Made by a program: the position numbers and the translations under genes. A stretch of DNA of 64,000 bases from a virus (taxonomy: Duplodnaviria; Caudoviricetes): IMG/VR virus record IMGVR_UViG_3300033121_001357, positions 30,494-94,493 of that record. One strand, written 5' to 3'. Each line of letters starts with the position of its first letter. Positions within the stretch are counted from its first letter, which is position 1. Below are positions 2,436 to 64,000 of this stretch, one piece after another. Below the pieces are notes generated by a model. The model had not been told where the DNA came from and searched no databases. It saw only the letters and a program-made list of their open reading frames with translations.

Positions 2436-4943
2436 TTACGCCTGAAGCGCGATATCAACGTTGATCTTGCGGAGTTCGTTGACGATTCTGAGACTTAGCT
2501 TGACCCTTGCTGTTCCGCGCACCTGGTCAATTCTGGACTGGCTTACAGTGGCGCTGAAAGAAAGAATTGCGCTGTTGGAAGCCTTCTGCATGTCGCTGAG
2601 CTCCTTGAGGAGACGAGTCTCAAGAGCACCCTTCCTGATTGGGGTAAGTGGCTCTCCAAGGAATTCTCTACCAACTTCTCTGACCTTGGTGATGACCTGG
2701 GACACGAGACGAATACTCATGTTCCTTGTGAAGTCGGAGTTTGGTAGTGCAGCAGACGGTGCATCTACTACAATTACGTCGGTTCCCTTCTGGTCGAATA
2801 CTGTATAACGAGCACCAGTCAAAGAATTCAAGTGACGCTTTGCAAGCTTCTGTGCCAGACGCACTCTGCTGGTATTGCCGATGCCAACCTTCTTCATTGT
2901 GGCAGCGGACCAAGGGGCGATGGCGGAGAGTAGACCTGCGTAGATTGAGGCACCTGAGTTGATGTATCCAAGACCTGTTGTATCGGCGTTGTTCTGGAAG
3001 ATCGGCCAAGTTGGAACGATACTTAGGAACTTACCGAGGTCGATTTCAAAGTTGTTGTTGTCAAGTACGAGAGTGGCGTCGTCGAGTTCACCGGACTCCG
3101 TAGCCTTAAAGCCAGGATCGAACTGAGCACCGTTGACGGAGTATTTCTTTCCAGCGATGAACTTAAAGCCAAGTAGGCCGCTTCCGTTTGTGATGACATC
3201 ACCAGTCTCGGTATCGTAAACAGGGGACTTGCCGATCCAACGAGCGATAGACGCTGGGTTGAAATGGTTTGTCGGCGGATTTACACCGATAACTGCGATC
3301 GTGGAGTTCTCGTTCTCAGTAGCCTCGTGGCAGAACCTTGCAATGCGGTAAGCGAAGTTCACCTCATTGTAAGTATAGCCATCTAGGTCGATCTTGGAGG
3401 TGTACCACTGATGGACCAAAGCACCATCAACCTCAACACTACGGTGATAGAAGAGAAGGTCAGTGTCGTATACCGCGAAGGCCGGAGTACGAGCAGCTAC
3501 GACTGTTCCACCAACACCGCTAAGAGAGAAGCTCACATTACGGTCAAAGTGGACAATCAGCTTAGTAGCAGCAGAACCATCTTCCCAGCTTAGAATACGA
3601 GCTGTACGAACAAGTTCGCCAGCAGTGTGGTTGTCGCCGAAAGCAGAACCCTGTGGGCTTCTGAATACGATCCAGCAGGCGCCTCTGCCAGCAGTTGCAA
3701 GAGCAGTCTTAGCAGTCGTTCTCTCATCGGCATCGTCGAAAGTAAGCTCAAAGCGATCTGCTCTACCAGCTAGAGTCGTTCCTACCACGTCCTGAATGGT
3801 ACCAGTCGCAGTGGAATCCATGAGCTGTGTCGGGAGCGCAGTAGCGCCTGTAGTCTCACCATCAAGAGCCGGGTCGTCTAGATAGACACCGGGCACAAGT
3901 AGTACGTCGATCGGAGAAGCCTCGAGAGCCATAAAGGCATCTTCAACAGCTTCGTACATATTCATCTTTGCGGGCTCGACCTCATCAACAGTCAGATCAG
4001 CGGTGCTGCCAAGGCTGTTCACTACCTTGTTCAAACCATTGAAGTCAGAACCAGGGGTGACTAGGAGCTTCTGAACGCCGGACGCTGCTGTGATGTAGAG
4101 TCTGTCCGTAAGAATATTGTCGATACGAATCGGACGAATCTTGGAGATGAAGCGGATCTTGTGGTTCGCACCTTCGGGGAAGCTGAGAGCCGTTAGATCA
4201 GAGTCTAGCGTAAGCGTCTTGGAGGCGATGTCGACCGCAGTGAGCGTGCGCTCCTGAAGGACAGAGCCATCACTCTTAAGGCACTGTACAAAGTACGGGT
4301 TTGTAGAAGCGTTGAACTGGAGGCGACCAAGGTTCAGTGTTCCGGCATCGTTCATGACGATGGTGTCCATTGCGGTATCGTCTGGAACGGTGAACGTCTG
4401 GTCGGTCTCGTCGTCCTCAACCTTTGTCTGCTCACCAATGGAGCCTACGAGGTTACCCACGGCCTTCTCGCCTGTGATCGTCACAGTGCCAAGGTCCACA
4501 GGGTTTGTGCTGTCGTTGCTGTATAGAAGCTCGCCAGTTGTGGCGTTGTATACCTTGAGGATGTCCTCAGCATTGTCGTAGAGGATGCTGTACCTCTCAA
4601 GGGCATTGGAGCCTTCTACAACAGTTGTAATGGTATATCCTGCGCTGCCAGCGCTGTCGCCAATATGCTCAATCTTGCCTCTAGTAGCAAGTACGCGGTA
4701 GGCGGATACGTTGTCAGCACCACCCTGGAATGCCTCGACGATAGCGCGAGCTAGGGTTCCCTCGGAACCAAAGCGAGAAAGGGCTGTGCTGCTTGAGTAG
4801 AGCTTAGACTCAAACTTAGAAGGCCCCTGCTTTGCTGTGCCAAGAACACCTACGACTGGGCCAACGGGAGCGATGTCAAGTAGGACATTGCCATCGTTGA
4901 TTGTCACGGAGGTGCCTGGAAGGTTTGGGTACTTGTCTGTCAT
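2436..4943 (-). CDS. Contractile tail sheath protein
   Basis: N-terminal LPGTSV..GVLGTAKQGP, C-terminal FLGEP..RLLKEL..ELRKINVDI sheath signatures; 835 aa. Confidence 0.85.
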   Translation of the reverse strand: MTDKYPNLPGTSVTINDGNVLLDIAPVGPVVGVLGTAKQGPSKFESKLYSSSTALSRFGSEGTLARAIVEAFQGGADNVSAYRVLATRGKIEHIGDSAGSAGYTITTVVEGSNALERYSILYDNAEDILKVYNATTGELLYSNDSTNPVDLGTVTITGEKAVGNLVGSIGEQTKVEDDETDQTFTVPDDTAMDTIVMNDAGTLNLGRLQFNASTNPYFVQCLKSDGSVLQERTLTAVDIASKTLTLDSDLTALSFPEGANHKIRFISKIRPIRIDNILTDRLYITAASGVQKLLVTPGSDFNGLNKVVNSLGSTADLTVDEVEPAKMNMYEAVEDAFMALEASPIDVLLVPGVYLDDPALDGETTGATALPTQLMDSTATGTIQDVVGTTLAGRADRFELTFDDADERTTAKTALATAGRGACWIVFRSPQGSAFGDNHTAGELVRTARILSWEDGSAATKLIVHFDRNVSFSLSGVGGTVVAARTPAFAVYDTDLLFYHRSVEVDGALVHQWYTSKIDLDGYTYNEVNFAYRIARFCHEATENENSTIAVIGVNPPTNHFNPASIARWIGKSPVYDTETGDVITNGSGLLGFKFIAGKKYSVNGAQFDPGFKATESGELDDATLVLDNNNFEIDLGKFLSIVPTWPIFQNNADTTGLGYINSGASIYAGLLSAIAPWSAATMKKVGIGNTSRVRLAQKLAKRHLNSLTGARYTVFDQKGTDVIVVDAPSAALPNSDFTRNMSIRLVSQVITKVREVGREFLGEPLTPIRKGALETRLLKELSDMQKASNSAILSFSATVSQSRIDQVRGTARVKLSLRIVNELRKINVDIALQA

Positions 4944-25984: not shown

Positions 25985-28900
25985 TTAACCTCTATGGTGT
26001 CCTATTACATTGTATCTATTCATATTTCTACGCATCTGACTAACTGCCGCTCTATGTCCTGACATTAAGGAAGACTTGGCATTTAGGTTTGTGGGCGTAC
26101 GCGGAATCTTGTTCCTATCAATGACATATCCGGAACCAAAATCCTTGATATTGGCTTCACGACTAGCGCCAATCCAACCATGTTTCATGCCCTCAATTGT
26201 ATTGAAGTCGTCTTTTCCACCAGCAGCTTGCATATCAGAGAATTCTGCATCTGGATTCCTCATTCTATTTAGGATTGCAGCGGTTTTGAAGTCTCTGAAC
26301 AAGCGTCCTAGATCTGTATAGCTAGTATTAGTAATACGACGCTTGCTGTTCATCTGCATCTCTCTAGAGATCTGCCAGGCTTCTTCGTTCCACATACCAC
26401 GTTGAGCGGCAAGAGCTTCTTGCTCTGCTCTATTAAAATCTGTGGCGTTTACGATCTGGTCCTTTCTCTTACCAAAGGGCAGAGAGGCTGCTGCACCTGC
26501 TTCAACTAACTGAAGGTTGATGTTGGTGTTGTTGTCACCCAAAAGGACACCGGCTGTACGACCATAAGAGGAGCTGCCATCTGGATTATAGGCTAGACGT
26601 AGCTGCTCCTGCCTTGCAAGGATCTGCTCTAGCTTTGCCTTGGCCTCTTGACCGTAGGGCTGATTTGGCCAGATTCTTCCAGGCTGATTCTCGTGTTCAA
26701 TTTCAGGGGCGTCAATGCCAGCAAGACGGACAGTCATCTCTCGTCCACCTCGCAGAGTCACGTTTACGGTGTCAGCGTCTTCTACAGAGTAATCTGTAAT
26801 CGTTGAATCCTGGATGTCGCTACCCTGGAAGCCCATATTGAGTCCTTCAAATGGATCCTTCAAGGTATGTGAGCGGGCGATGTGTCTGGAGTACTGCTCA
26901 AGACCTTCCTGGAGGATGTCTTCAGCGAAAATCCTCATACCCTGCCATGGAGAGCCGAAGCCATAGTGCTTACGCATTCGGGCCCCAATACCCTTACGTC
27001 CAGTCAGAGGAGACTCCTCCTGCATACCCATAATGCTGTTTCCATGGATGTTTGTTGGGATGCGGAACCCACTTCGACGACTGCTTCGTCTAATCCCGTT
27101 ATCACCCCCTTGATCCATGGATGTGATTCTAGCGAACTGCTCAAGACCTTCCTGAGAGATATCTTCAAAGAAAGGACGGAGTCCCTGGATGTCCTGAGAC
27201 GACATGCCTTGCCATGGAGAACCGAAGCCGAAAAACTTTCTAAGCTTCGCACCTATACCCTTCTTACCAGAGATAGGCGATTCCTCTTGCATACCAGGAA
27301 TGACGTTAGCTTCTACGTTGGATTGGATTCGATTTTGAGCTTCAGCGGCCTGCTTTCGCAGGATTGCTGCTTGCGCTCGCTGTTCTATTGCGATCTTTCT
27401 AGCTCGTGCTGGAGTTATACCTAGCTCACCACGGGCATCCATGCTCCTGAGTAACTGGCCAATTGAATCATTGGCCAAGGACTCTGGATAATGTTCATAC
27501 TGGGTCTTGTGAGCGCTAAATTCTTCGAACCATTGATGAGACCTTTCTGAGTATCCACTTTTTGCAAATGCTTCCTTTGCCTCTTCACTTAAAGACCCAG
27601 TCCTACCACTAAGCGAGTTGCCGGCATGTTTCTGGTGATCTCTCTCATGCTTGATTGCTCCTCTAAGTACCTGTCCTGGATCTAGGTTATGCTCTTTAGC
27701 ATAGTCCTTTGCCGCCCTTGAGTTAATAAAGACAGGCCTTAAGCCCTTAGATTCTGCATCTGCAACTTGCTTAAGAAATGCCTCTTTCTCGCTAGCGAGC
27801 CCTTCGATATCCTTTGCATATTCAAGCCACTCTCCCTCTTCGCCTTCAGCACTCCATCTCTTATACCGATCTATTTTTGATTCCTGTTCCGCAAAGAATT
27901 GTTCCCAGCCCTTCACGGTATTGAAATCGGGGGCCCTCTCATGCATGAACTTTATTTCATTGGCTAGGGCATCAGACCATGGCACACCCCGTGCTTCGCA
28001 CGCCTTTTCGGCAACCGAGGCCACCTCTTCCAGACTGTTTTTTACATACACGAATCCAACTGCTCCAGTTTCACGACCCATGACTTTAGAAAGAGCCCCT
28101 TCGCCAAAACTGATTATGCCCCTCCAACCTGAACCGAAGTCAGTATTGTACTTACGCGAAGCTCCCGAGATACCTGCGTGCTTCATACCTTCGATATAGT
28201 TGTAGTCATCATCATTAGAACTAATGAGATTTGCGGCAAAGAGGGCACCAGCGCCCACTAAACCAATCTTCCAGTTCTCTCTGAGGAAGTTCTTAAACTT
28301 AGACCCCATTGAGGCTTCAGCAACTTCAGGAGCTGCACCAGAAGGAACAAGCCGAGGACTAAGCTCCTGTGCTAGAGATTCCATCTTAGGAGCATGCGTA
28401 CTAAGCGCATGTTCTAGAGCCTCTGCCCGAGTTGCCCCTCCTGCTACCTTGGCCTTTACAGACTCCTCAAAGGCATCGATGTAGCGGGTCCTAGCTTCTG
28501 CGAGGGCAGCATCATAGTCAACCTTGACTCCAATACCGCTACGAGCCTCTCGGGCAGCCCTGGCCCTAACCACCTTCTCGATATCCGTAGAGAACTCATG
28601 CGGATTCATTCTGGGATCTGCCTTTGTTCTAAGGAAGAACTGTAGCTTCCTACGGCTATACGTTCCGGTGTTATCGTCTAGGACTTCTACTGGAAGGCTT
28701 AAGGTTCTATTAGAATGTCTTACACGAGCCCCCTTTAATAGCTCATAATCAGGCTTGCCCTGTGCCTTGGAGAGAAGGAATTTCTGCTGATTCGTATATG
28801 TATCAATGATGTTCTTTACAGTATTCCTTCTCTTAATCTCCGGAAGGTCCTTACCAAGATCCCCAAAGAATCTCTGCATATGCTCTGGCAGAGCTTCTCC

Positions 28901-29824
28901 CTTCTGCATCGCATAACCAGCTCCGGCTAGATCTCTAACCATCTGCCCCTGGAGAACGTTGTCAGCAAGTGCTGTATGCAACTCATTCTCGCCATACATC
29001 AAGTTGGCATAGGTATTTACGCTGGTTCCTGTAAAGATTTCTCCTGTCTTAGGCATATACCCACGGTTCTGAGCCATGGCAAATACAGACTTTGACAAGT
29101 CCATAATGTCAAATACTCGAGTACCGTTGAAGGACCTTTCAAGCTCTGGAGCGAATCCCTTGGTAAAGACTTCTTCCCAGGCATTAAGGTGCGTATCTAA
29201 TGTCCCCAGTGCTGTAGCTCTAGATGCCCTACCAAGAGTCTGCTTGAGTTCCAGGGGAGTGGTGTAGAGGCCACCTCCAGGAGTTGGAGATCCTCTCGTG
29301 AAACTCTGTAGTCGATTCTTGACGCCCCAGTTCTCAAAGTGCTGTGCGCCTATACGCTCATTAATAAATGAGCGTTCGTGTTGCAGGTTCTGCACCCAGA
29401 CATCGCGATTCCCGAGCTGTGAGAGGGCCTTATAGCCTGCTTGCTTCTGGGTGGTACTGGCGTTATGGAGCACGTCCATAAATGGCCCAGAAAGGTCCCC
29501 AGAGGCCTGCAATGCGGCCTCTCTCTTTGCGATTAGGTCACGGGTAAATGGAGAGATCTCACCAGTTCGCTTTCCGCCGATGACAGTTGGCTTTACGAAT
29601 TCGTGAGTGAAGGTAGACTTGGGCCCGATGCCATGCATGAAGCCCATTTCGTAGATAGGAGAGGAGGGATGAAGGCCACCAGTCTCAATATCAAAGATGG
29701 TTGCTCTAGAAGCAATCTTTGACAGTTGCTCTTCAACTCCTGTAGAGAATGATTGAGTGCCATTAAGAAGTCTGTCTCTATACTCCTTAGCTAATTCAAT
29801 TTCTCTCCAGGAGCCGTATGACAT
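25985..29824 (-). CDS. Polyvalent protein: DEDDh exonuclease-like, HExxH peptidase-like and SNase/thermonuclease domains separated by repeats
   Basis: FDIETGGL..HTALAD; KHERDH..EEFSA; DADTV..VRLAGIDAPE..QPYGQEA..YGRT. Confidence 0.75.
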   Translation of the reverse strand: MSYGSWREIELAKEYRDRLLNGTQSFSTGVEEQLSKIASRATIFDIETGGLHPSSPIYEMGFMHGIGPKSTFTHEFVKPTVIGGKRTGEISPFTRDLIAKREAALQASGDLSGPFMDVLHNASTTQKQAGYKALSQLGNRDVWVQNLQHERSFINERIGAQHFENWGVKNRLQSFTRGSPTPGGGLYTTPLELKQTLGRASRATALGTLDTHLNAWEEVFTKGFAPELERSFNGTRVFDIMDLSKSVFAMAQNRGYMPKTGEIFTGTSVNTYANLMYGENELHTALADNVLQGQMVRDLAGAGYAMQKGEALPEHMQRFFGDLGKDLPEIKRRNTVKNIIDTYTNQQKFLLSKAQGKPDYELLKGARVRHSNRTLSLPVEVLDDNTGTYSRRKLQFFLRTKADPRMNPHEFSTDIEKVVRARAAREARSGIGVKVDYDAALAEARTRYIDAFEESVKAKVAGGATRAEALEHALSTHAPKMESLAQELSPRLVPSGAAPEVAEASMGSKFKNFLRENWKIGLVGAGALFAANLISSNDDDYNYIEGMKHAGISGASRKYNTDFGSGWRGIISFGEGALSKVMGRETGAVGFVYVKNSLEEVASVAEKACEARGVPWSDALANEIKFMHERAPDFNTVKGWEQFFAEQESKIDRYKRWSAEGEEGEWLEYAKDIEGLASEKEAFLKQVADAESKGLRPVFINSRAAKDYAKEHNLDPGQVLRGAIKHERDHQKHAGNSLSGRTGSLSEEAKEAFAKSGYSERSHQWFEEFSAHKTQYEHYPESLANDSIGQLLRSMDARGELGITPARARKIAIEQRAQAAILRKQAAEAQNRIQSNVEANVIPGMQEESPISGKKGIGAKLRKFFGFGSPWQGMSSQDIQGLRPFFEDISQEGLEQFARITSMDQGGDNGIRRSSRRSGFRIPTNIHGNSIMGMQEESPLTGRKGIGARMRKHYGFGSPWQGMRIFAEDILQEGLEQYSRHIARSHTLKDPFEGLNMGFQGSDIQDSTITDYSVEDADTVNVTLRGGREMTVRLAGIDAPEIEHENQPGRIWPNQPYGQEAKAKLEQILARQEQLRLAYNPDGSSSYGRTAGVLLGDNNTNINLQLVEAGAAASLPFGKRKDQIVNATDFNRAEQEALAAQRGMWNEEAWQISREMQMNSKRRITNTSYTDLGRLFRDFKTAAILNRMRNPDAEFSDMQAAGGKDDFNTIEGMKHGWIGASREANIKDFGSGYVIDRNKIPRTPTNLNAKSSLMSGHRAAVSQMRRNMNRYNVIGHHRG

Positions 29825-31453: not shown

Positions 31454-31676
31454 TTTTCGTTCTCCAACTTAAAAGGTAGTACCCGTTTCCCTCCGAATAA
31501 GGTCAATAACCAATAAGACCTTAGGTTAAAACCTATTGTAAGTAGAAGGGTGCTGGAAATAAAGGGGAATAGAATTCCTCGTGTGAGAGACCCGTTCGTG
31601 AACTCACACGTTCATTCTTCGTTAAAACTTGAATGAACCTGAAAATAAATACCGAATTTTACATCTGCTAAGTCTT

Positions 31677-31869
31677 CCCGCGTGAGGACCTGAAATTGCT
31701 GAAAAAATATGGAGCTACCTAGCTTCATATGAGCATTAGCGAAATATGAAGGTGTGAGCTTTTGCGAACAGTGAGTTCCTAAAAAGTAAGAGCGAATACA
31801 TCAAGTTGCAGTTCTCGCATCCTCTCGCGTAAGACCTCGAAATTGCTAAAAAAATATGGAGCTACCTAG
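31677..31869. repeat. Two imperfect direct repeats of about 46 bp in the divergent intergenic region
   Basis: CCCGCGTGAGGACCTGAAATTGCTGAAAAAATATGGAGCTACCTAG (31677-31722) versus CTCGCGTAAGACCTCGAAATTGCTAAAAAAATATGGAGCTACCTAG (31824-31869). Confidence 0.9.
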
Positions 31870-31937
31870 TGAGTTCTGTCGACACTCAAGGGACCCGTAG
31901 TTGCGAGCCCCCGGGGGTCGGATATAGGACTCATGGT

Positions 31938-31971
31938 GTGGTGGTCAGGCGCCACGTTAAACAAACCTGAC
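31938..31971 (+). ncRNA. Leader H-type pseudoknot (first of a recurring family)
   Basis: S1 GTGGTG/CGCCAC, S2 GTCAGG/CCTGAC, linker GTTAAACAAA. Confidence 0.65.
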
Positions 31972-32027
31972 TGGTGCATTCAGTCCACTGGCCAATAATT
32001 AGTGGACATTGAAGCAAGGAGATAGCC

Positions 32028-32339
32028 ATGCTGTCCAACGATTTCTTCCGTTTCATCTTCATCGAGCGTAGTACTCACTCCCGCACGGCAATGCTGGAGA
32101 TGCTGGACGCGCTGTACAACTACTACCCCGAGGGCCGGGAGGAGAACGCGGCCATTCTCACTCTCAGTCTCGACTGCATCAACGCGTGCGAGGGCGAGAG
32201 TGAGAATGAGAAGGACCTCCTCCGCCGCAGGGCCGAGGCCCGGGCCGCGAAGTTCGATCAGAACTTCTTGCAGGATGAGATGCGGGAGCTGGCTGACCTC
32301 CGAATCGCCAAGGAGGCAGAGGAGGCTCAGGACTGGTAA
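32028..32339 (+). CDS. Hypothetical early protein
   Basis: AAGGAG RBS; GC3-rich codons. Confidence 0.7.
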   Translation: MLSNDFFRFIFIERSTHSRTAMLEMLDALYNYYPEGREENAAILTLSLDCINACEGESENEKDLLRRRAEARAAKFDQNFLQDEMRELADLRIAKEAEEAQDW

Positions 32340-32557
32340 GATCCGAGCTTCTTCGCTTCTCTTCCTACAGCCCTCTAGCAGAACGGGCATCACAATAGTT
32401 CTGCTCTCCACTTATACCTATCAGCATCACAACTAAAGTGGTGTTGGTAGATATAAGGGTGCAAGGAAGCCCACTGTGGATGGTCCATAGTGGGTACGGT
32501 TACCTGTCCACTGGGTAGTGGACACGGGCCCTATTGTATAGGGCATGGGGCAGGTAG

Positions 32558-32770
32558 ATGCTGTTCTTGATCTCGTGGCTGCTGAAGGCGAAGTTGCAGT
32601 TCTGGATGCGGTGGGGGAAGTGGACGGCCCGGGGTCTCCTGGGCGCGTACGCGTATATGTACTGCACCAGGTCGGGGGCGATGTTCGTCCCCGTGATCCT
32701 GGCGGCCGTCCTCGTCCTCGCTGTCCGGGAGCGGCGTACGCCGCTCCCCAAGCGGCGACGATTGAACTAG
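32558..32770 (+). CDS. Small membrane protein
   Basis: Hydrophobic MFVPVILAAVLVLAV segment; GC3 bias. Confidence 0.55.
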   Translation: MLFLISWLLKAKLQFWMRWGKWTARGLLGAYAYMYCTRSGAMFVPVILAAVLVLAVRERRTPLPKRRRLN

Positions 32771-32934
32771 GTGATGGGTGTCGAGGACTTCGGTCCTCGA
32801 CATTAAACCACAGCCCCCGTCCAAAGTCGTGGGGCACAGGTGTGCAGAAGCCATCGTCACATAGTGTGGTCGGTGGCACATTCATCGTCTGGCTACGGTC
32901 AGACAATCGCCCTTAGGGGCAGAAAGGCAGCATC

Positions 32935-33552
32935 ATGCTGCGCATCATCTCTCTCTCCCTCGTCCTGTTCGGCGTGTTCGGCGCGTGGCTCGGGATGCTG
33001 ATGGACACGGCGGCCATCGCGACCGCCACCACCAGCAGCATCGCCACCCACCCCTCGTTCGCCGGCATCTCCTGGATCGGCATCGCGGTCATGATCGTCG
33101 GCATGCTCCTCGGGCGCCTGTCCGGCCTCGTCGCCCACCGCGGCAACGTCTCCGCCATCGTCGTGTCCGAGGAGCTCTTCAACCAGGTCGCGGACTTCTG
33201 CGACGTGGAGGTCCGTGACCTCGAGGAGAGCCCGGTGCGGTCCCTGGATGCCGAGGGCATCGAGCAGATCGCGAGCCTCCAGATGAACATTCGGGAGGTG
33301 ATCGCTCGCCTCCCGAAGCCGGCCGATCTGGCCGGTGCCGAGGCCTTCCGCGCCTACAACAAGGCGCAGCGTGAGATGGCGAGCCCGATCGCCACGATCG
33401 CCCGCATCGCTCGCCGTGAGGCGTTCGATGCCCACATCCAGTACCGGCGGGCGCTCCGGGGGACGGTCGGCTTCCCGATGCTCCAGTGCACCCCGTCCTG
33501 CCGGGACATGGCGCAGGTGATTTCTCTGCGGCACAACGGCCTCACTCACTGA
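32935..33552 (+). CDS. Membrane protein (two N-terminal TM helices)
   Basis: Two hydrophobic helices; AAAGG RBS; GC3 bias. Confidence 0.7.
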   Translation: MLRIISLSLVLFGVFGAWLGMLMDTAAIATATTSSIATHPSFAGISWIGIAVMIVGMLLGRLSGLVAHRGNVSAIVVSEELFNQVADFCDVEVRDLEESPVRSLDAEGIEQIASLQMNIREVIARLPKPADLAGAEAFRAYNKAQREMASPIATIARIARREAFDAHIQYRRALRGTVGFPMLQCTPSCRDMAQVISLRHNGLTH

Positions 33553-33649
33553 ACTACTGACTGTCGCCCGTCCTATCCGGGCAACTCTACTACACCCCTG
33601 GTGATAGGGTATCAGGGGAGAAAGGTGTTTAACCCCCATGGGGCATGCC

Positions 33650-34246
33650 ATGGAACGACTGCTCGAGCGGTGTGAAGATAGCGCGACCAAGGGTCGCTTC
33701 GAGAAGCTCATTATTCTGCTGACGCAGGACAAGGAGCTTCGTCTCGAGCTTTTTCCGACGACTCGCGACTTCTTGGTCGCGAGTCCGTTCGGTGGGCTCA
33801 AGATCAGCAACCTCGGCCCGATCACATTCTTGCCTGCGGACCACGTGGTTCATGACGAGAGTGTGATCACTTACCTCGATGTGATCGAGGCGCGCGTCGA
33901 GAGGATCATCAATCGGCGTTACCAGGAGCAGCTTGCTCTGATGACGCATCGCCCCGATGGTCGCATCGATGCTGGCAAGCGTCGGGCCCGGACGTCCCGG
34001 GCACAGCGTGAGGCGGAGGATAGCATCCGTTTCACGCAGCTTCGTTCGCTTTGGGATCTGGGTGCGGTCCAGGTCTCCTTCGCGGATATCGTCACCTTCG
34101 CCGAGAAGCGCGGGTGGCGTGAGGCGGGTGAGGCGCTGGACAACGTGGCTGACTGGCTCGAGACCTGGGTGTCTCAGGGTCGGTTGATTGAGATCGGCGG
34201 TGAGGGCCAGGAGGTCTGGGCCTTCAAGCTGGGAAAGGAGAAGTAA
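33650..34246 (+). CDS. Hypothetical protein (possible C-terminal winged helix)
   Basis: GC3-biased ORF. Confidence 0.65.
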   Translation: MERLLERCEDSATKGRFEKLIILLTQDKELRLELFPTTRDFLVASPFGGLKISNLGPITFLPADHVVHDESVITYLDVIEARVERIINRRYQEQLALMTHRPDGRIDAGKRRARTSRAQREAEDSIRFTQLRSLWDLGAVQVSFADIVTFAEKRGWREAGEALDNVADWLETWVSQGRLIEIGGEGQEVWAFKLGKEK

Positions 34247-34251
34247 GACAG

Positions 34252-35001
34252 ATGGGTGGGTTCCTCATTCTCGTGGCGCTGAACATGGAGAGGGTCCTCA
34301 AGGACCTTCTCTGGTTCGGCCAGGAGAAGGCTAATGAGCGGATGGTTCCGCTCATTAGCCTTCTTGGCACCCTCTCGCCGGTTCTTCGGAACCGGTACTT
34401 CCTCTACCCACATGATGCCCGGTGGGTGGACAACGGCGTCCAGGGCGACGTAATTACGGCGTTGCGTAGCCCGGCCTCGATAACTGAGTGGGCAATTGGA
34501 GTGTGGAAGGCACTTGAGATGGTGCCAGATGCACTTCAGAGCCTTCAGATGCTGGCGACGATGGGTGATGAGGGCATCTGTCTCATGCTTGACTTCTTGG
34601 AAGGCATGGGACTAGTGCCCTGTACGTCACCGGGGCAGGCCTGCACTCATCAGGGGTGCGGGAATCCTGCTCTCATGCCGACCTCGAACGGTGCCCTCTG
34701 CGCGGCCCACTACAAGGTGTGGGTCCGTGGCGGTTTCGAAAGTGAAGCCGAGAAGACGGTCGACTTGCCCGATGTGACCCTAGAGCTGCCTAGTGAGCCG
34801 ACTGGTTGGGATATCGCTCGGCGGGCAGCCGAAGAGCTTGTGCGTGCCTCGGACTATGGTCCGATCGTTCAGGTTAAGGGCCTGGATCGCGCTACGGTCC
34901 TTGTTTCGGTCCTCGAGCGTAGTGGAAAGTCCTCGAGTGTCACGTTGCCCCATGAGAGATGGGTGGAGTTTCTCGCCAGTGTGATCCGCAGTATCAGCTA
35001 A
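34252..35001 (+). CDS. Hypothetical protein with a CxxxxC..CxxH zinc motif
   Basis: CTHQGC..LCAAHY. Confidence 0.6.
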   Translation: MGGFLILVALNMERVLKDLLWFGQEKANERMVPLISLLGTLSPVLRNRYFLYPHDARWVDNGVQGDVITALRSPASITEWAIGVWKALEMVPDALQSLQMLATMGDEGICLMLDFLEGMGLVPCTSPGQACTHQGCGNPALMPTSNGALCAAHYKVWVRGGFESEAEKTVDLPDVTLELPSEPTGWDIARRAAEELVRASDYGPIVQVKGLDRATVLVSVLERSGKSSSVTLPHERWVEFLASVIRSIS

Positions 35002-35055
35002 TCCCTACCTGTCGAGCCCACAACCAGAGTTGTGGGCTTCCAAGTGTGGATTAGT

Positions 35056-35092
35056 GTGGGATGTTGGCACCCACGTTAAATAAGTGCCGACA
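35056..35092 (+). ncRNA. Leader H-type pseudoknot
   Basis: S1 GTGGG/CCCAC, S2 TGTTGGCA/TGCCGACA, linker GTTAAATAAG. Confidence 0.65.
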
Positions 35093-35146
35093 ACAACGGC
35101 CATAGTGGCCATTCTATCGCCTCTGCGGAGGCAAAGGGAGAGCATC

Positions 35147-35602
35147 ATGCTCGGCTCCTTCATGGTGTCCATTCAGTACCTCGTCCACCTGATCAACAAG
35201 ATCAGCAGAAGCTACCACGCGGAGGTGGTGGACCCCCGCGTGGAGTGGGTCCGCGTCAAGAGTGTGAAGAACGACCACGGCTTTGACCTCGGTCCTGTCA
35301 GCTTCCGCAGCTGGGTGCCGCGGCGTGACATCGAGGCCCGGATGATCTGGGCCATCTTCGTCCTGCTCCACGACAAGAGTCTGTTCGAGGAGCGTCAGAG
35401 GGCGTTGGATTTCGTGATGGACGAGATGGCCCGAGAGGGGGATCTGGATCGCTTGGAGGTCTGGCGGGATTTCCTGTATCTGCTGATCCATCCCATTGAG
35501 GACCAGCTCTACAAGGGTGTGATGACCGATGTCGTCGCCGAGCTGGATTTCCACGTCCAGCGGATTCATCGACACCTGGAGATCTCGGCGAACTTGAACT
35601 GA
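35147..35602 (+). CDS. Hypothetical early protein
   Basis: GGGAG RBS before ATG 35147; GC3 bias. Confidence 0.7.
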   Translation: MLGSFMVSIQYLVHLINKISRSYHAEVVDPRVEWVRVKSVKNDHGFDLGPVSFRSWVPRRDIEARMIWAIFVLLHDKSLFEERQRALDFVMDEMAREGDLDRLEVWRDFLYLLIHPIEDQLYKGVMTDVVAELDFHVQRIHRHLEISANLN

Positions 35603-35714
35603 TGCGGTGAGGCCAGTGGGAATTGTTCCAGTTCCCACTGTAAACCCCAGTCCCCGTTGCCAAGGCGTGGGACACTTACCGTGCTAGCAATAGCACAACT
35701 ACAAAGGAGCTATC

Positions 35715-36050
35715 GTGGAATACCTCTTTGGTGTCTGGGGAAATGCTTTCGAGACCAGGGGTCAGGGGCAGACGGAGTTTGGATCTTTCTTCGACTTTCG
35801 TCGGTGCCACATTTGTGGCCGCGAGGAGCGAAAGCCGGCGAACAACCGGTGCTGGGAGCCGTCTCATTGCTCCTGCATCAATGGGTTTGCGTCCATCACG
35901 GAGTGGGATGGCGAAAAGGACCTGGTCGCGTACCGTAACTGCGGCAAGGACGTTCACATCATCTACAGGTCGGGGAAGATCGCCGAGCCCTTCGTGATCC
36001 ACGTTGTTCCACGAGACTACTTCAACTCGCTGGTCAAGCAGCGGTTCTAA
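35715..36050 (+). CDS. Hypothetical Cys-rich protein
   Basis: AAGGAG RBS; GTG start. Confidence 0.65.
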   Translation: MEYLFGVWGNAFETRGQGQTEFGSFFDFRRCHICGREERKPANNRCWEPSHCSCINGFASITEWDGEKDLVAYRNCGKDVHIIYRSGKIAEPFVIHVVPRDYFNSLVKQRF

Positions 36051-36112
36051 TAGTCTGATCAGCCCTATCTGAGTGCGACAGATGGGGCGAATGAGGCTAT
36101 TAGAATTCCTGT

Positions 36113-36147
36113 GTGGTGGCCGGGAGCCACGAAAAATAAACCCGGCT
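36113..36147 (+). ncRNA. Leader H-type pseudoknot
   Basis: S1 GTGGT/GCCAC, S2 GGCCGGG/CCCGGCT, linker GAAAAATAAA. Confidence 0.65.
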
Positions 36148-36202
36148 AGCGCATCCTACCCCTGGCCAACAATTAGGGGTTTCTACGTTCTAGGAGCCAA
36201 CC

Positions 36203-36622
36203 ATGGCGATCATCTCGATGAAGAAGTCCTCGTTCATCCACTACGTCAACATGTTCCTCATGGTGAAGGATTACTCCCAGTTCGAGGACGCCCTGCTGGT
36301 GTTCCTCACCAAGAACTGGCAGGACATTCAGAAGATGCGTTCGTGCTGGGAGGATATGGAGGAGGACGAGACGTCGGGCTTGCCGGCGGCGCTGGTCATC
36401 TTCAGCACGCTGTTCGCCAGCGACTTCCTCTACGATGCTCGAGCCGACCGCCTGATGCGCTTCCTGCGCATCTTGCGGGTTAGCGGGGCGGGCAAGGTGG
36501 TGTTCGATGAGATCATCGCCGACGCGAGGCGAGAGATGAACCTCGAGGAGATGTGGGAGGAGGCGAAGACGGGGCTTTCGGAGAACCCGTTCCAGATCAC
36601 CTTCGAGTTCACTGAGGACTGA
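36203..36622 (+). CDS. Hypothetical early protein
   Basis: AGGAGCCAACCATG start context. Confidence 0.75.
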   Translation: MAIISMKKSSFIHYVNMFLMVKDYSQFEDALLVFLTKNWQDIQKMRSCWEDMEEDETSGLPAALVIFSTLFASDFLYDARADRLMRFLRILRVSGAGKVVFDEIIADARREMNLEEMWEEAKTGLSENPFQITFEFTED

Positions 36623-36681
36623 CGTCGTCTGATCAGGAGGGTGTGGTGCGACACATTCTCCGAATGAGGCTATATCAGTGT

Positions 36682-36714
36682 GCGGTAGCCGAGGCCGCGT
36701 TATAAAAGCCCGGC
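36682..36714 (+). ncRNA. Leader H-type pseudoknot
   Basis: S1 GCGGT/GCCGC, S2 GCCG/CGGC, linker GTTATAAAAG. Confidence 0.6.
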
Positions 36715-36770
36715 AAACAACAACCCGCCCCTGACTGCAAAAATATAGGGGCACATAGAAGGAGCCAACC

Positions 36771-37283
36771 ATGGCCCGTCATTCGATCGTCGTCACCCTC
36801 GCCTCCCTGTCGTACCGGATCCAGGAGATCTCCGGCCTGGAGGGGATGATTCGTCGGTTCATCGGCTACACCCCCAAGACGTACGAGTTGGCGAAGAAGG
36901 AGGCCCTGGCGCTTTGTGCAGAGCACGGTCTCCTCAGTGGTCTCCAGATCATCATGGCGATGGATCCGAAGGAGGCCTCCCCCGTCCAGCAGATCATGGG
37001 TGCCCGCTTCGGCGTCCAGATCGTCAAGTGCACGGATGTGGCGGCGAAGATCCTCCCGATCAAGCATCGGGTCAAGGTCACCGGGTTCACGAAGGAGGTG
37101 ATGGACGAGCTGGAGCGTGAGCTGGAGAGTCTGATCCACCAGAACGCGACCAAGCAGATGGAGGCCTACGGCCTCCTCGAGAAGTTCGGCTTTCGTTCGT
37201 TCAGGTTCGACAACGACGGGAACCTCGTCGCTGTCACTCATCACCCGGTCTGGGGCGAGTCCTGGACCGAGGCCGTCAACTGA
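36771..37283 (+). CDS. Hypothetical early protein
   Basis: Same AGGAGCCAACCATG start context as 36203. Confidence 0.75.
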   Translation: MARHSIVVTLASLSYRIQEISGLEGMIRRFIGYTPKTYELAKKEALALCAEHGLLSGLQIIMAMDPKEASPVQQIMGARFGVQIVKCTDVAAKILPIKHRVKVTGFTKEVMDELERELESLIHQNATKQMEAYGLLEKFGFRSFRFDNDGNLVAVTHHPVWGESWTEAVN

Positions 37284-37512
37284 TCCTGTTCACTGACTGA
37301 GCGGTCGAGGGCTTAGACTCTCGGCCGCTTCCCAGTGCACAGGAGTGCATAGACCTGGCTAAGTCTTAAAACTAGCCTACGGGGGAGGGGGTGCCCTAGA
37401 CACATCCCCTATGCCACACCTGGGCTATCTAATTCAGGTAGCTGACATATACTGCTGCCATGCCATGGGTTGGTATGGGTGTCAGCCAGCAAAACTCCAA
37501 TAGGAGAAACCC

Positions 37513-40500
37513 ATGACCCGTCACGCCGCCGTCATCGCCGCCCTGGTCGCCCACATCAGCGAGCTCGGCGCCCAGGCCCCGACCCACCAGAACAGCCGCA
37601 AGAGCCTGGACGAGATCGCCGAGGCCTTGGGCGTCAAGGTGAAGGGCGCGAAGAAGGGGCCGGACCGGATCGCCACCGAGGCCTGCAACCGGGCCCGGAA
37701 GCTGTCCGAGCTCGACGCCGAGCAGATCGTCGACCACTTCGGCCTCGAGGAGCTGGTCGAGCCGTCCGACGAGAGCCTCGGCAGCGAGGAAGACGTCATC
37801 GACGCGAACACCCACATGGCGGCCAGCCTGGCCGCGAAGGAGGAGGCGATGCGGGAGAAGCAGGTCGCGGAGCAGATCGCGGAGAACGTGATGAGCGCCG
37901 TCGAGAAGACCGACGAGCCCATCACGGAGGAGAAGCGCGAGGAGCACGAGGAGGTGAGTGTGGAGCCGCAGAAGGTGGAGGAGAAGAAGGTGGACGAGCA
38001 GCCCAAGGTCGACAACCCCGAGCCCAAGGTGGAGGAGAAGGTCGAGGAGAAGAAGCCGACCAAGGAGGAGCTCCTCCAGGCCGCCAAGGACTTCGAGCAG
38101 GTCGCGCAGGGCCAGGTGCCCGCCACCGTGCTGAACAGCACGCGGCGCATCGGGCAGTGGACGCTGGAGCTGTTGCCCAAGAACGCGGGCTTCACCATCG
38201 TCAGCTCGAGCCACCAGAAGCGGAACATCTCCGCGACGATGGTCGCGGCCTTCGCCTCGAAGGTCCGGACGATCCCCGTGAATCTGACGGTCGAGAAGTT
38301 CGTCGGTCGGGCGAACGACAAGATCCTCAGCGAGCTGTACAAGTTCAGCATCGACGAGGAGAAGAACATCAAGGCCCGCGGGGAGTTCCTCGCCCGTCTC
38401 GTGAGCATCGAGACCGCGTCCGCGAAGGTCCTGGCCAAGGCCTCGGGCTGGAAGGCCTCGCACCTGCAGGGCGAGCGCCAAAAGATGATGCGGCTCTACG
38501 GCACCGCCAAGGACCGGATCGGAAACTTCAAGGTGGCGCTGGACACGGCGACCACCGGCGATCAGCACGCGGCGAACTTCTACGCCGCGGCCAAGGCGTT
38601 CGGGCTCCTGGAGGAGGGCGCGGACCTCTTCGGGCTGGACATCACCAGCTCGAGCGTCAAGGCGACGATCCCGCAGCCCCCGACGTCGCAGAGCGAGCAG
38701 AAGAAGCCCATCGAGGAGAAGCAGGTCGACAGCAAGTCGACCCCCACCGCGGCCACCGAGCCGCAGCAGGAGAAGCCCGTGACCGAGCGCAAGGCCGGTA
38801 TCATCAGCAGCAAGCTCTACAACGACCGCGTCGAGGTGCTCCGCAAGGAGCACTCGGCCTTCGTCGAGCACAATGAGGAGCGCGAGAAGAAGTTCTGGGC
38901 GGGCTTCGCCGGCCACGTCCAGAAGTTGAACGACCTGCTGTCCCAGCAGGCCACCAAGCACAACGTCCAGGCCGTCAGCAAGCTGATGGCCTCCATCGAG
39001 GACTCCTGTGCGGCCCGCATGGTGCGGATCCAGAAGCAGCAGGAGCAGCAGCAGGACGCGCCCGAGGGCGCCAACCAGCCGACCGATGAGTCGGTGAAGG
39101 AGACCGTCGTGAGCGAGCAGCAGCAGACCACCGAGGCCCCGATCAACACCCAGGATCAGGGGGGCGCGGGCGCGGTCGTCGAGACCAAGACCGAGACGGT
39201 GGTGGAGACCAAGGCCGACGTCAAGACCGAGCAGGCCCCCGAGGCCACGGTCGAGGTCGTGACGGAGGAGACCCCGAAGGAGACCTCGGAGCCCGACGCC
39301 GAGCTGGCGACCGAGGACAAGAAGGACGAGAAGAAGGAGGAGAAGGTGAGCAAGAAGGAGAAGTCCAGCAAGGGCAACTGGACGGTGTGGGGCAAGATCG
39401 TCGCCGCCGCCCTGGCCATGGACAACCGGATCGTCATGTGGGGCGCGCCGCGCAAGGCGCACCGGGACGACTACCAGAAGGCGCTGAGCGCCGTCAAGGC
39501 CTCGATGGAGGGCGCCGAGGACAAGCCGTCCAACGGCAAGAACGTCGGGGCGGTGAAGGCCCTGAACACGTTGCTGTTGGAGACGAACGGTTTGGTGACC
39601 GGCGTGGCCCGCGAGATCGTGGGGGCCCAGACCGTCACCATCGACGGCAAGACGAAGACCATCGCGGAGTGGGAGGGCGGGCAGCTCGAGGCCGTCTTCA
39701 AGAACGGCCACTTGCTGAAGGCGCGCGGCTTCCTGAACCGCAGCAAGCAGGAGATCCTGGCGAAGCCCGAGGCCAAGCAGGCCATCGCCACGAACCTCGC
39801 GGTGAAGCTCACCGAGATGTTGCAGGGGAAGCAGGACCTGCTGCTCCCGGTCCTCGCCCTGGCCTCGTTCTGGATCGGCCGCAGCGTGCCGACCACCGAG
39901 AAGTTCGGTCGGTGGATCAGCCAGCAGGTCGGTGAGATCAAGTCGGACAAGGACTTCGAGTCCTTCGTCTACGACCTGAACAGCCGGCGGAGCCTCGTCG
40001 AGCGCCTCGAGAAGACGGTGCCGAACGAAACCTCCTCGCTCATCGCGGCCAAGGAGAAGCTGGCCGAGATGGAGAAGAAGGCGAACGAGCTGGACGGGGA
40101 TCGCTGCGCCATCGAGCTGAAGATCGACGGGCAGTGGAACCCGGCCCTCTTCAACGAGAAGGACATGGGCCTCTCGTTCGAGGGCCTGCTCAACACCCAC
40201 ATGCAGAAGCTCCTGAACTTCTGCCACAGCGTCCGCACCATCGACGAGAAGGACCCGAAGGTCCTCAACGCCCTGCATATGTGCGGGGTCAGTGGGAAGA
40301 AGGACGAGACCGTCGACATCACCACGATCCAGCACCTGGCCCTGCAGGTGTTCTGGCTGGTGATGGACATGTGCAGCAACAGCCTCGACCAGAGCTGGTT
40401 CGAGGTGCAGTGCGCCCTCCGCAACATGGAGGCGCTCGAGGTCCAGTCCAAGACCCCGAACAAGCGTGGGGTCATCAAGGCCACGGCGTGGTTCATCTAC

Positions 40501-61212: not shown

Positions 61213-61319
61213 AAGTCCTTGCTACGGGACTATAAAACGTAGTCTTAAAATTTATTGATTATTTGTTTATGTCCTGTCGAGGAACCCTGAGACGTTAACC
61301 ATGGGTTCAGTTTATCCAT

Positions 61320-61407
61320 GGGGATGTGGCGAAATAGGCAAACGCGGTGGTCTCAAACACCACTTGGTCTTAACTGGCCCCTGAGAGTTCGAGTCTCTCC
61401 ATCCCTA
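61320..61407 (+). tRNA. trnL: tRNA-Leu(CAA)
   Basis: Acceptor GGGGATG/CATCCCT, anticodon arm GTGGT-CTCAAAC-ACCAC, long variable arm, T arm GAGAG-TTCGAGT-CTCTC; CCA not encoded. Confidence 0.92.
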
Positions 61408-61544
61408 CTTGGGTCTTTTCTTGCATAGACATGAAAGAATGCAAGTGGTGGAGGTGCCGAGAGGTGCCCTAAATTTCTCCAAATAAGAGGCAGGTGTTCC
61501 TCACTTAAAGTAGCCTGCGCCTACTGGAGAGAAGCGCAGTTTAT

Positions 61545-62405: not shown

Positions 62406-62763
62406 AAGCTTGCATCTCTGAGAGACTGCCATGTAGCTAATTTAATTTGGCTTCTTTAGCAAATAATAATTGGCTAAGGTAGGAAAAGTGTCCTGACTGA
62501 CCAATGGGTCGGCAGTCTCTTTGTCTTGACTAGGGCTCCGTAATGTCAAGACGTTAAGCAAATGGGCGTAATCGCCTTACACTAAGGACAGCAATGGCTG
62601 TTTTGTGTACGACTGGGGCATTATTTTAATAATGCTTATGATGCCGCCATGAAACAAATTTAATCTGTTTCATGGCATGCTCCATGAAACCAGGGGGTTC
62701 GTGGCTGAATAGCGGCTGCACCCATGGAGCGGGTAACGCTAACACTGGAAGTAGGAGAGAGAT

Positions 62764-63846: not shown

Positions 63847-63880
63847 GTCCGGGTGGTGGAATGGCAGACACCGGGGACTT
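63847..63880 (+). tRNA. trnL: 5' exon of tRNA-Leu(UAA)
   Basis: GTCCGGG-TG-GTGGAATGGCAGACAC-C-GGGGA-CTT, interrupted in the anticodon loop. Confidence 0.8.
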
Positions 63881-64000
63881 AAGTAAATTTGAGCACCTGA
63901 AGTGAAAGCTTCAGTGTGAATGGAGTCAAATTCGGCGAACGGCCTGCGAAAGTGACCCAACGCCGAGCTAAGTCTTGCGCTTGTTCTTTCCACGATATGT
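63881..64000 (+). mobile_element. Group I intron in tRNA-Leu(UAA) (5' part; continues beyond the window)
   Basis: ..TTTGAGC-[P2 hairpin CTGAAG..CTTCAG]-TGTGAATGGAGTCAAATTCGGCGAA..AACGCCGAGCTAAG parallels the P and Q elements of the trnL(UAA) intron. Confidence 0.8.

Follow-up and report, generated by a model that had tools for sequence, protein, structure and literature searches.

Hairpin-pseudoknot and twister-type leaders in an early operon of an uncultured large phage: structures, conservation and a possible cut-and-protect role

The window (64,000 nt) belongs to an uncultured large phage whose record spans 94.5 kb. We infer that its plus-strand early genes, from about 31870 to about 41190, are carried by one long RNA. 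The untranslated gaps between these genes (150-230 nt) mostly hold either a long hairpin followed by a pseudoknot or a twister ribozyme; leaders 2 and 4 deviate. Structure fills the leaders almost without interruption between the stop codon and the RBS. Two direct repeats are found upstream, each with a hairpin directly 3′ of it; they are guessed to be candidate early promoters of unknown type, and no sigma-70 match was found on the + strand at 31673-31869. The position of the first long hairpin likely corresponds to the 5′ end of the operon transcript. Neither a sigma-70-type promoter nor an intergenic intrinsic terminator was found on the + strand inside the operon, the single + strand terminator-like match (34884-34900) lying within the 34252-35001 gene. 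No RNA-binding domain was found among the ten early proteins.

Table 1. RNA features and repeats of the window. The features are sorted according to their type, then their position. HP-A, long irregular hairpin; HP-B, downstream hairpin; S1 and S2, stems 1 and 2; L3, loop 3; z, folding compared with shuffles.
Feature	Position	Strand	Characteristics
Two 50-nt direct repeats (repeat family D1)	31673-31722; 31820-31869	+	84% identity
HP-A1	31870-31934	+	-27.8 kcal/mol, z -2.9
HP-A4	34998-35054	+	-29.9 kcal/mol, z -6.4
HP-A6	36047-36103	+	-32.0 kcal/mol, z -7.2; overlaps stop codon
HP-A7	36619-36678	+	z -4.2
HP-A8	37284-37344	+	-38.3 kcal/mol, z -6.9; directly 3′ of stop codon
Pseudoknot 1	31936-31970	+	S1 31941-44 with 31952-55; S2 31945-49 with 31966-70
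Leader 2 pseudoknot	32370-32404	+	S1 4 bp, S2 7 bp, L3 9 nt
Pseudoknot 4	35056-35091	+	S1 5 bp; S2 7 bp including one G-U; L3 10 nt
Pseudoknot 6	36111-36145	+	S1 36116-19 with 36127-30; S2 36120-24 with 36141-45
Pseudoknot 7	36682-36714	+	S1 GCGG/CCGC; S2 6 bp, one-base bulge
Pseudoknot 8	37351-37377	+	S1 AGAC/GUCU; S2 5 bp; L3 6 nt
Tandem pseudoknot pair	41201-41283	+	10 nt past the stop codon of a 1225-aa gene
Three pseudoknots around a tRNA (61320-61407)	61214-42; 61276-308; 61413-45	+	
HP-B1 hairpin; RBS AAGGAG	31979-32013; 32016-21	+	precedes ATG 32028
HP-B6 hairpin	36159-36179	+	precedes RBS and ATG 36203
Type-P5 twister	32770-32835	+	RF02684, 37.9 bits (32770-32831); gathering score 37.6
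Twister-like ribozyme 2	35606-35673	+	best family Twister-P5, 19.3 bits, sub-threshold

The five long hairpins described in the first-pass annotation all fold as it proposed. Their minimum free energies range from -26.9 to -38.3 kcal/mol (z -2.9 to -7.2), and none of 200 shuffles folds as well. Each is 57-65 nt long, contains about 22-24 bp with internal loops and is not followed by a U tract. Four begin 1-3 nt from the upstream stop codon, in agreement with that annotation (HP-A4 overlaps the stop codon 34999-35001). The upper stem of HP-A7 is swapped relative to copy 6, and changes in a variant strain convert its G-U pairs to G-C pairs. In the early mRNA of T7 and in the Bacillus phages SP82 and SPO1, RNase III sites are found between cistrons of the long early transcript. 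These sites are irregular hairpins of about two helical turns, and after cleavage the hairpin stabilises the 3′ end of the upstream product. The hairpins of the window share the size and the irregular shape of these sites: all five have the structure of an intercistronic RNase III site (irregular hairpin of at least about 20 bp between cistrons). Unlike the T7, SP82 and SPO1 sites, each is followed by a pseudoknot, some gaps hold a ribozyme instead, and cleavage is here putative.

The reported order of elements (irregular hairpin, H-type pseudoknot with an A-rich loop, hairpin and RBS) is correct, and all five pseudoknots are present. Their stems are fully canonical except for a one-base bulge in copy 7. 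A strict pseudoknot descriptor finds five matches in 1,412 nt of leaders; 0.14 +/- 0.36 are expected from 300 dinucleotide shuffles, none of which reaches five (enrichment of about 35-fold). The opposite leader strand gives no match, and the operon coding sequence has two in 7,905 nt. The window has at least 11 such pseudoknots, each of them on the sense strand and located in a gene gap: a sixth in the operon (leader 2) and at least five more in the 41201-41283 and 61214-61445 regions. In the tandem pair, the first pseudoknot has a hairpin inserted in L3. The last of the three pseudoknots around the tRNA begins 6 nt past the tRNA end.

Stem sequences had been said to differ while pairing is kept, and this extends to the larger set: both stems covary over the 11 copies. 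S1 has 3-5 bp in all 11 and exists in seven versions; the S2 strands are all different. L3 of pseudoknot 1 has 10 nt and starts with GUUAAAC. Four copies and one from an unrelated phage contig (L006) have near-identical stem 1 and loop 3 and a variable stem 2; the remaining seven differ in stem 1 and loop 3. No invariant unpaired nucleotides were found across the 11 copies apart from the A-rich loop. Both variant-strain changes in the S2 3′ strand of pseudoknot 7 preserve pairing. Pairing is attributed to RNA rather than DNA because the G-U pairs and the C-to-U changes of the variant strain fit RNA. The leaders are 93.4% identical in this strain and the genes 83.0% (Fisher p 3e-16). Identity reaches 100% in one leader and in pseudoknot 4, and one gene between conserved leaders is just 53.5% identical. 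Downstream of the pseudoknot, the HP-B1 stem covaries with that of copy 6 (repeat family D20). Four copies place the start codon 55-57 nt past the pseudoknot and leave the RBS single-stranded.

Twister-type ribozymes, absent from the first-pass annotation, are found in two leaders of the same operon. Both leaders are devoid of pseudoknot, and the twister takes the position of the long hairpin, likewise starting at the upstream stop codon. The type-P5 twister (RF02684) was reportedly described by Roth et al. in 2014. The element at 32770 begins at the final base of the upstream stop codon and has a predicted cut at 32804/32805; the one at 35606, with a predicted cut at 35641/35642, does not belong to RF02684 by its score. 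By inspection, P1 followed by the U-A cleavage dinucleotide, P2, P4, T1 and T2 are present in both copies and in a third one (L042, 35.7 bits with the RF02684 model). P1 is entirely different among these three copies. P1, T1 and T2 of the 35606 element covary with those of the 32770 copy: T1 occurs as AC/GU and as CC/GG, and the third T2 pair as G-U and as C-G, one version per copy. The 35606 core is identical in L040 and L041, and a leader of an unrelated phage contig carries the same twister core with a fully swapped P1, directly before an RBS. The 32770 element shares with Twister-P5 the UAA context of the cleavage site and the intergenic placement in phages (PMC6765202). The elements found here differ from the RF02684 model by a longer P4 and by T1 (A-U/C-G or C-G/C-G here, G-C/C-G in the model).

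The pseudoknot matches no family in the proposed Rfam scan, which was run. Among the closest known systems is coremin (xrRNA_C and its Watson-Crick variant), which occurs in BNYVV RNA3 and in numerous other RNA viruses and brings both Xrn1 and ribosomes to a halt; knots of this type are an obstacle to ribosomes during scanning and favour frameshifting (PMC6546385, PMC10520033, PMC10321173). Both have a module made of the S1 3′ strand plus GUUAAAC, a short first hairpin (3-5 bp in all 11 copies) whose loop meets the sequence past an A-rich stretch to give an H-type pseudoknot, and a further downstream hairpin. The coremin stem GUC/GAC is present in copy 61276-61308. The task of coremin, halting a 5′-to-3′ enzyme, would by analogy be the task of the pseudoknot. 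The coremin loop YGAD/YGNNAD (PMC6546385, PMC10520033) is not found; loops are 7-12 nt long, variable and mostly made of the S2 strand. Nor is the ten-nucleotide coremin spacer GUUAAACUAC with its essential residues A16 to A20: copy 1 keeps GUUAAAC, then has AAA, and the other copies diverge further. The CUA at positions 18-20, which coremin cannot do without, is not conserved here, and none of the four sequence-similar copies has U at position 19. The second coremin hairpin (at least 4 bp) directly follows the spacer, whereas here the S2 3′ strand comes next and the next hairpin starts 8-13 nt past S2 (except at 41251/41252, where the second pseudoknot abuts the first). Coremin stem 2 has about 3 pairs within the 10-nt spacer; here 5-7 Watson-Crick pairs lie past a loop 3 of 6-10 nt. 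Coremin acts on Xrn1, whereas the host here is a bacterium, which lacks Xrn1.

Other known RNAs were rejected. The SAM-II riboswitch (RF00521; 13.6 bits, gathering score 36) is also an H-type pseudoknot, and its Rfam consensus has the stem 1 and loop 3 wording of copy 1. In SAM-II, stem 2 builds the SAM pocket and belongs to a conserved triplex with loop 1; here it differs in every copy, and the loop is much shorter. A metabolite sensor does not fit, because at least six copies precede unrelated orphan genes. Run over all 94.5 kb of the record with E-values up to 10, the pistol model (RF02679) gives no match. Like the pseudoknot, pistol has a short first-hairpin loop that pairs with downstream sequence, then a hairpin; by inspection, its topology (P2 enclosing both the pseudoknot strand and P3) and its two-base junction with the cleavage site are absent here (PMC4604425). 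GP20-b (RF03003) is weakly matched by copy 8 only (22 bits, E 0.29; gathering score 36.2).

The best reading, with position and analogy as its basis, is "cut and protect"; it is possible, although it falls somewhat short of probable. Hairpin cleavage and nuclease resistance of the pseudoknot would be its two halves. The process half gains indirect support: twisters hold the place of the long hairpin in two leaders, no sigma-70-type promoter or intergenic intrinsic terminator is found inside the operon, and the hairpins match T7/SP82-type RNase III sites in size and irregular shape. For the protect half there is only a resemblance, the S1 3′ strand plus GUUAAAC shared with coremin. The enrichment and strand-specificity of the pseudoknots, their rarity in coding sequence, the covariation of both stems, the pairing changes that fit RNA, the lack of U tracts in the hairpins, the stronger conservation of leaders and the recurrence of the twister core, with another P1, in a leader of an unrelated phage are also counted in favour, as is the published proposal that self-cleaving ribozymes process polycistronic RNAs of phages and bacteria (PMC6765202). 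The departures from the coremin loop, spacer positions 18-20 and adjacent hairpin are counted against it, as are leader 2, which has a pseudoknot without long hairpin, and leader 4 (33553-33637), which has neither pseudoknot nor twister.

Leaders could instead be translational insulators or organisers that act without cleavage, so that the RBS of each cistron folds alike whatever lies upstream. The pseudoknot would keep ribosomes or upstream unfolding off the next initiation region, and the small hairpin would present the RBS. This is somewhat unlikely. The fixed spacing to the start codon, the single-stranded RBS and the ribosome-blocking and frameshifting of coremin-type knots agree with it, and genes that vary strongly between conserved leaders fit a reusable expression module. 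RNA-cutting twisters in the equivalent place argue against it, as do copies that flank a tRNA or sit in tandem 260-290 nt before the next start codon, where no translation is organised. The stronger constraint on leaders than on genes also agrees with an operator, in which an RNA-binding protein of the phage or its host (a translational repressor, as in T4 gene 32 regulation, or an antitermination or anti-Rho factor) would control the early genes jointly via stem 1 and loop 3. The four copies and the L006 copy that keep these elements while stem 2 varies favour it. The seven others do not keep them, the ten early proteins provide no candidate domain and, in a sample of 105 viral-contig matches, the sequence pattern is not enriched for pseudoknot pairing; an operator is unlikely.

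Two other explanations are less probable still. Dense structure could only keep Rho or other single-strand loaders off the gaps, the pseudoknot being one interchangeable option. Leaders folded nearly from stop codon to RBS and the lack of terminators inside the operon are consistent with such burial. It leaves unexplained why one particular pseudoknot architecture, with an A-rich loop 3, keeps recurring, why a pseudoknot lies beside a tRNA and why catalytic twisters are present, and it is improbable. The hairpin-pseudoknot cassette could also be an undescribed self-cleaving ribozyme, by the same logic as for pistol, hatchet and twister-sister: a structured RNA that neighbours twisters in phage DNA. 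It shares the twister slot in one operon, and its stem 1, loop pairing and loop 3 start presumably resemble pistol in its 5′ part. The cassette is matched by none of the Rfam ribozyme models, the pistol P2/P3 topology is absent, and the dearth of invariant unpaired nucleotides is unlike any known self-cleaving class. Moreover, assays of several structured RNAs from the vicinity of ribozymes showed no cleavage (PMC6765202). A new ribozyme is very improbable.

Under cut and protect, the gene gaps would be processing and expression modules of two interchangeable designs. In the first (five gaps), the irregular hairpin would be cut by a double-strand-specific endonuclease, most simply the host RNase III, and what is left of it would stabilise the 3′ end of the upstream piece. 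The new 5′-monophosphate end would then carry the H-type pseudoknot, which lies 0-7 nt past the hairpin. The A-rich loop 3 of the pseudoknot, lying along stem 1, could form a roadblock to 5′-to-3′ enzymes (candidates: RNase J-type exonuclease or end-dependent RNase E), and the small hairpin downstream would keep the RBS exposed. In the second design (two gaps), the twister would cut itself, and the upstream piece would end in the long P1 hairpin. No pseudoknot would be needed there, because the downstream piece would start with a 5′-OH and the P4 hairpin. The same pseudoknot also recurs past stop codons and flanks a tRNA, itself a further processing point. The coremin-like H-type pseudoknot may even be a bacterial counterpart of the eukaryotic viral xrRNA, a small, sequence-flexible 5′ armour at cut sites of a long early RNA (RNase III hairpin, tRNA processing, after a stop codon), functionally interchangeable with a twister, whose 5′-OH product would do without armour; this wider proposal is rather doubtful. 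If true, the window would hold a natural side-by-side comparison of two solutions in one operon.

The hairpin-pseudoknot feature found in the leaders (gene gaps) of the early operon is genuine, has statistical support and is conserved. The anatomy given by the first-pass annotation (long irregular hairpin, H-type pseudoknot, small hairpin, RBS) is right: its five long hairpins fold as it described, and its five pseudoknots are all found, with canonical stems. The long hairpins (-26.9 to -38.3 kcal/mol; z-scores -2.9 to -7.2) are not equalled by any of their shuffles (0/200 fold as well). Each contains about 22-24 bp broken by internal loops and is devoid of a U tract; the upstream stop codon is included in or abuts four of the five. 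Pseudoknots were counted with a strict descriptor (stem 1, S1, 4-5 bp without G-U; stem 2, S2, 5-7 bp; loop 3, L3, 6-12 nt, at least half A). In the leaders (1,412 nt) it detects 5 pseudoknots versus 0.14 +/- 0.36 expected (300 dinucleotide shuffles), so that the motif is much rarer in shuffled leaders. The opposite strand of the leaders gives 0 matches, the operon coding sequence (7,905 nt) gives 2 and the other + strand gaps give 5, versus 0.47 expected. When copies missed by the strict descriptor (a bulge, a 3-bp S1 or an inserted hairpin) are added, the total reaches at least 11, all on the sense strand and in gene gaps. Both stems covary, since the S2 strands are all different and S1 exists in seven versions. 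As judged from its G-U pairs, the structure belongs to the + strand RNA.

Features of the window and of two other viral contigs. Coordinates are those of the window unless a contig is named.
Feature	Position	Strand	Details
1279-aa protein	25985-29824	-	staphylococcal-nuclease domain (PF00565, E 3e-18); divergent from early operon
Direct repeats (candidate promoters)	31673-31722, 31820-31869		50 nt, 84% identical; upstream of operon; hairpin directly after each
Early operon	about 31870-41190	+	ten genes, G+C 57-67%
Sixth operon pseudoknot	32370-32404	+	
Element treated as twister	32770-32831		Rfam Twister-P5 match
Terminator-like match	34884-34900	+	within a gene
Leader with element treated as sub-threshold twister	35603-35714		leader
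Weaker third repeat copy	36735-36758		inside leader 7; 75% over 24 nt
Tandem pseudoknot pair	41201-41283	+	right after 1225-aa gene
Three pseudoknots around a tRNA			one starting 6 nt past tRNA end
390-aa protein	54851-56023		matches T4 Rnl1-type RNA ligase family (PF09511, E 8.7e-10)
Two-hairpin element	62523-62579		8-bp hairpin, GUUAAG, 4-bp hairpin; no loop-to-flank pairing
Weak group I intron model match	63871-64000		25 bits, E 0.011; clipped by window end
Hammerhead-like core	L042 2729-2800		CUGAUGA ... GAAA, possible stem III; just before RBS
Knot-like element	L031 about 4267-4316	-	similar stem, GUUAAA, 5-bp loop pairing; immediately precedes a tRNA gene run

Two leaders contain twister-type elements that the first-pass annotation overlooked; the pseudoknot is absent from both. 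The first element scores 37.9 bits with Twister-P5 (gathering score 37.6), has the final base of the upstream stop codon as its first nucleotide and is treated, on its sequence, as a twister. The second has the same build. Its best family is also Twister-P5, with just 19.3 bits because its P4 helix exceeds the length of the model, and it is treated as a sub-threshold, structurally consistent twister. P1 is wholly different between the two, the tertiary pairing T1 is AC/GU in one and CC/GG in the other, and the third pair of T2 is G-U in one and C-G in the other. A pattern search with the shared core detected one further copy (35.7 bits), in the unrelated viral contig L042; this copy shares the core exactly, has a completely exchanged P1 and is directly followed by an RBS. 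The leader of another gene of L042 carries a hammerhead-like core, for which no Rfam match was found at E up to 0.1. An alternative outer helix enclosing the second twister was rejected, as a variant strain does not keep it.

This variant strain is represented by two metagenome contigs (L040, L041). Its leaders are 93.4% identical to those of the window and its genes 83.0% (Fisher p 3e-16); leader 35002-35146 is 100% identical, its neighbouring genes 85-91%. The gene at 35715-36050 is just 53.5% identical to its counterpart (L040 2301-2639) and its flanking leaders 84-93%, which suggests a gene replacement between conserved leaders. Pairing is kept or improved by nine of the eleven stem changes listed: hairpin 7 (hairpins and copies are numbered by leader) has two G-U pairs of its upper stem turned into G-C, hairpin 8 has a G-U turned into A-U and an A-U turned into G-U, and the second twister has a U-G of P1 turned into C-G. 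In pseudoknot 7, two C-to-U changes on the 3' side of S2 lead to wobble pairs or to pairing of a bulged A. Hairpin 6 has four changes, two giving U-G wobbles and two (U to C opposite A) giving C-A mismatches; the latter are the only ones that break pairing. No change affects the twister core or pseudoknots 4 and 6. The internal and apical loops common to hairpins 6 and 7 do differ between strains; their likeness is probably due to a recent duplication and not to a protein-recognition code. An RNA-library contig joins 36769 directly to 37512, skipping the 170-aa gene and the following leader; this junction, known from that contig, looks like a strain variant lacking one gene-plus-leader module. 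Parts of the region are found in four sequencing runs, three of them of wastewater RNA libraries, as assembled contigs for which DNA carry-over is possible.

The covariance model R1 recovers no copies beyond the four that are similar in sequence, the strain variants of these four and a copy in viral contig L006. Stem 2 of two copies is mis-registered by both MAFFT and the covariance model, and the MAFFT alignment of the twisters is also faulty; base pairs were therefore tabulated by coordinate in a script, in place of pair counting on alignments. Matches to the wording of stem 1 and loop 3 were found in viral contigs (105 unique matches), with loop-flank complementarity not above that of permuted flanks (at least 5 bp in 19, versus about 15 with permuted flanks). 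Most of these matches are therefore chance ones, and wide spread of the exact pseudoknot variant cannot be claimed from this set. The L006 copy (7 bp of loop pairing, behind a long hairpin, before an RBS) is convincing, and a few others look real too. A knot-like element is also present in L031, an AT-rich viral contig.

Permissive Rfam scans of the cassettes detected no family, whether hammerhead, pistol, hatchet, HDV, preQ1 or another; the best scores of the pseudoknot (SAM-II, 13.6 bits; GP20-b, 22 bits) are far below threshold. Riboswitch readings were rejected because stem 2 differs in each copy. A further comparison is with coremin (xrRNA_C), an Xrn1-resistant RNA of plant viruses. Its first hairpin has 3-5 bp and a YGAD or YGNNAD loop (PMC6546385, PMC10520033). 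A16 to A20 are essential positions of its 10-nt spacer, GUUAAACUAC; the 3' part of the spacer interacts with the loop, and the second hairpin directly adjoins the spacer (PMC6546385, PMC10520033, PMC10321173). The phage knots likewise have a short first stem, loop-to-downstream pairing and a later hairpin; the spacer start GUUAAAC is exact in copy 1 and close in three other copies and in L006. However, they lack the loop consensus, do not keep spacer positions 18-20, have a non-adjacent second hairpin and form, after loop 3, a longer Watson-Crick helix (stem 2). On paper, the phage knot would work like a Watson-Crick variant of coremin; since the loop, spacer 18-20 and adjacent-hairpin features fail, it is, by sequence, not a member of the family. 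The two-hairpin element of the table resembles classical coremin in layout more than the pseudoknots do.

The IMG/VR record has 94,493 bp, of which the right-hand 64 kb form the window; with a CheckV completeness of ~46%, it represents a fragment of a large phage. The gaps between the ten early genes have 85-229 nt and a G+C of about 50-55%. Pfam and PHROGs searches gave nothing usable for any of the ten proteins, megablast found nothing matching the region among 50,697 phage records, the 249-aa protein has no relative in the viral-contig search, and the sole homologue found for the 139-aa protein is that of the variant strain. Within the operon, neither a sigma-70-type promoter nor an intergenic intrinsic terminator was found on the + strand, the sole terminator-like match being that of the table. 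The two direct repeats upstream are its only candidate promoters, possibly for a non-sigma-70 polymerase.

The most economical reading, plausible but tentative and unproven, is that one long early RNA would be punctuated by cutting and protection, with two types of modules. In one, a hairpin and a pseudoknot, an endonuclease would cut and leave a 5'-monophosphate needing a shield; in the other, the twister would cut itself, giving a 5'-OH and the P4 hairpin. This reading is proposed because twisters and hairpins share the stop-codon position, twister and pseudoknot are mutually exclusive, the long hairpins are RNase III-like in size, the knot is also placed beside a tRNA and loop 3 is coremin-like. 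In H-type knots, loop 3 runs along stem 1 and resists enzymes coming from the 5' side. Against cut-and-protect, one leader has a knot without long hairpin and another has neither.

Translational insulation without cleavage is a rather unlikely alternative to this punctuation by cleavage. That the pseudoknot is a protein operator is less probable still. A structure serving Rho avoidance is quite improbable. A new ribozyme is very unlikely and the least credible of these explanations. The RNA ligase encoded elsewhere in the window may be of interest, given the presumed ribozyme-cut RNA ends and the tRNAs of this phage.

What twister ribozymes do in the biology of bacteria and phages is still debated as an open question (PMC6765202). 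The most useful new finding is that twisters and hairpin-pseudoknot cassettes occur together in a single operon: their equivalent slots offer a direct, cheap test of what each element does. To our knowledge, exonuclease-resistant RNAs have so far been described in eukaryotic viruses. If the pseudoknot does not stall decay, the cassettes remain conserved, modular expression leaders. If it does stall 5'-to-3' decay, the xrRNA principle would be extended to DNA phages of bacteria, the recurrence of such knots at gene boundaries would be explained, and compact parts for operon engineering would become available.
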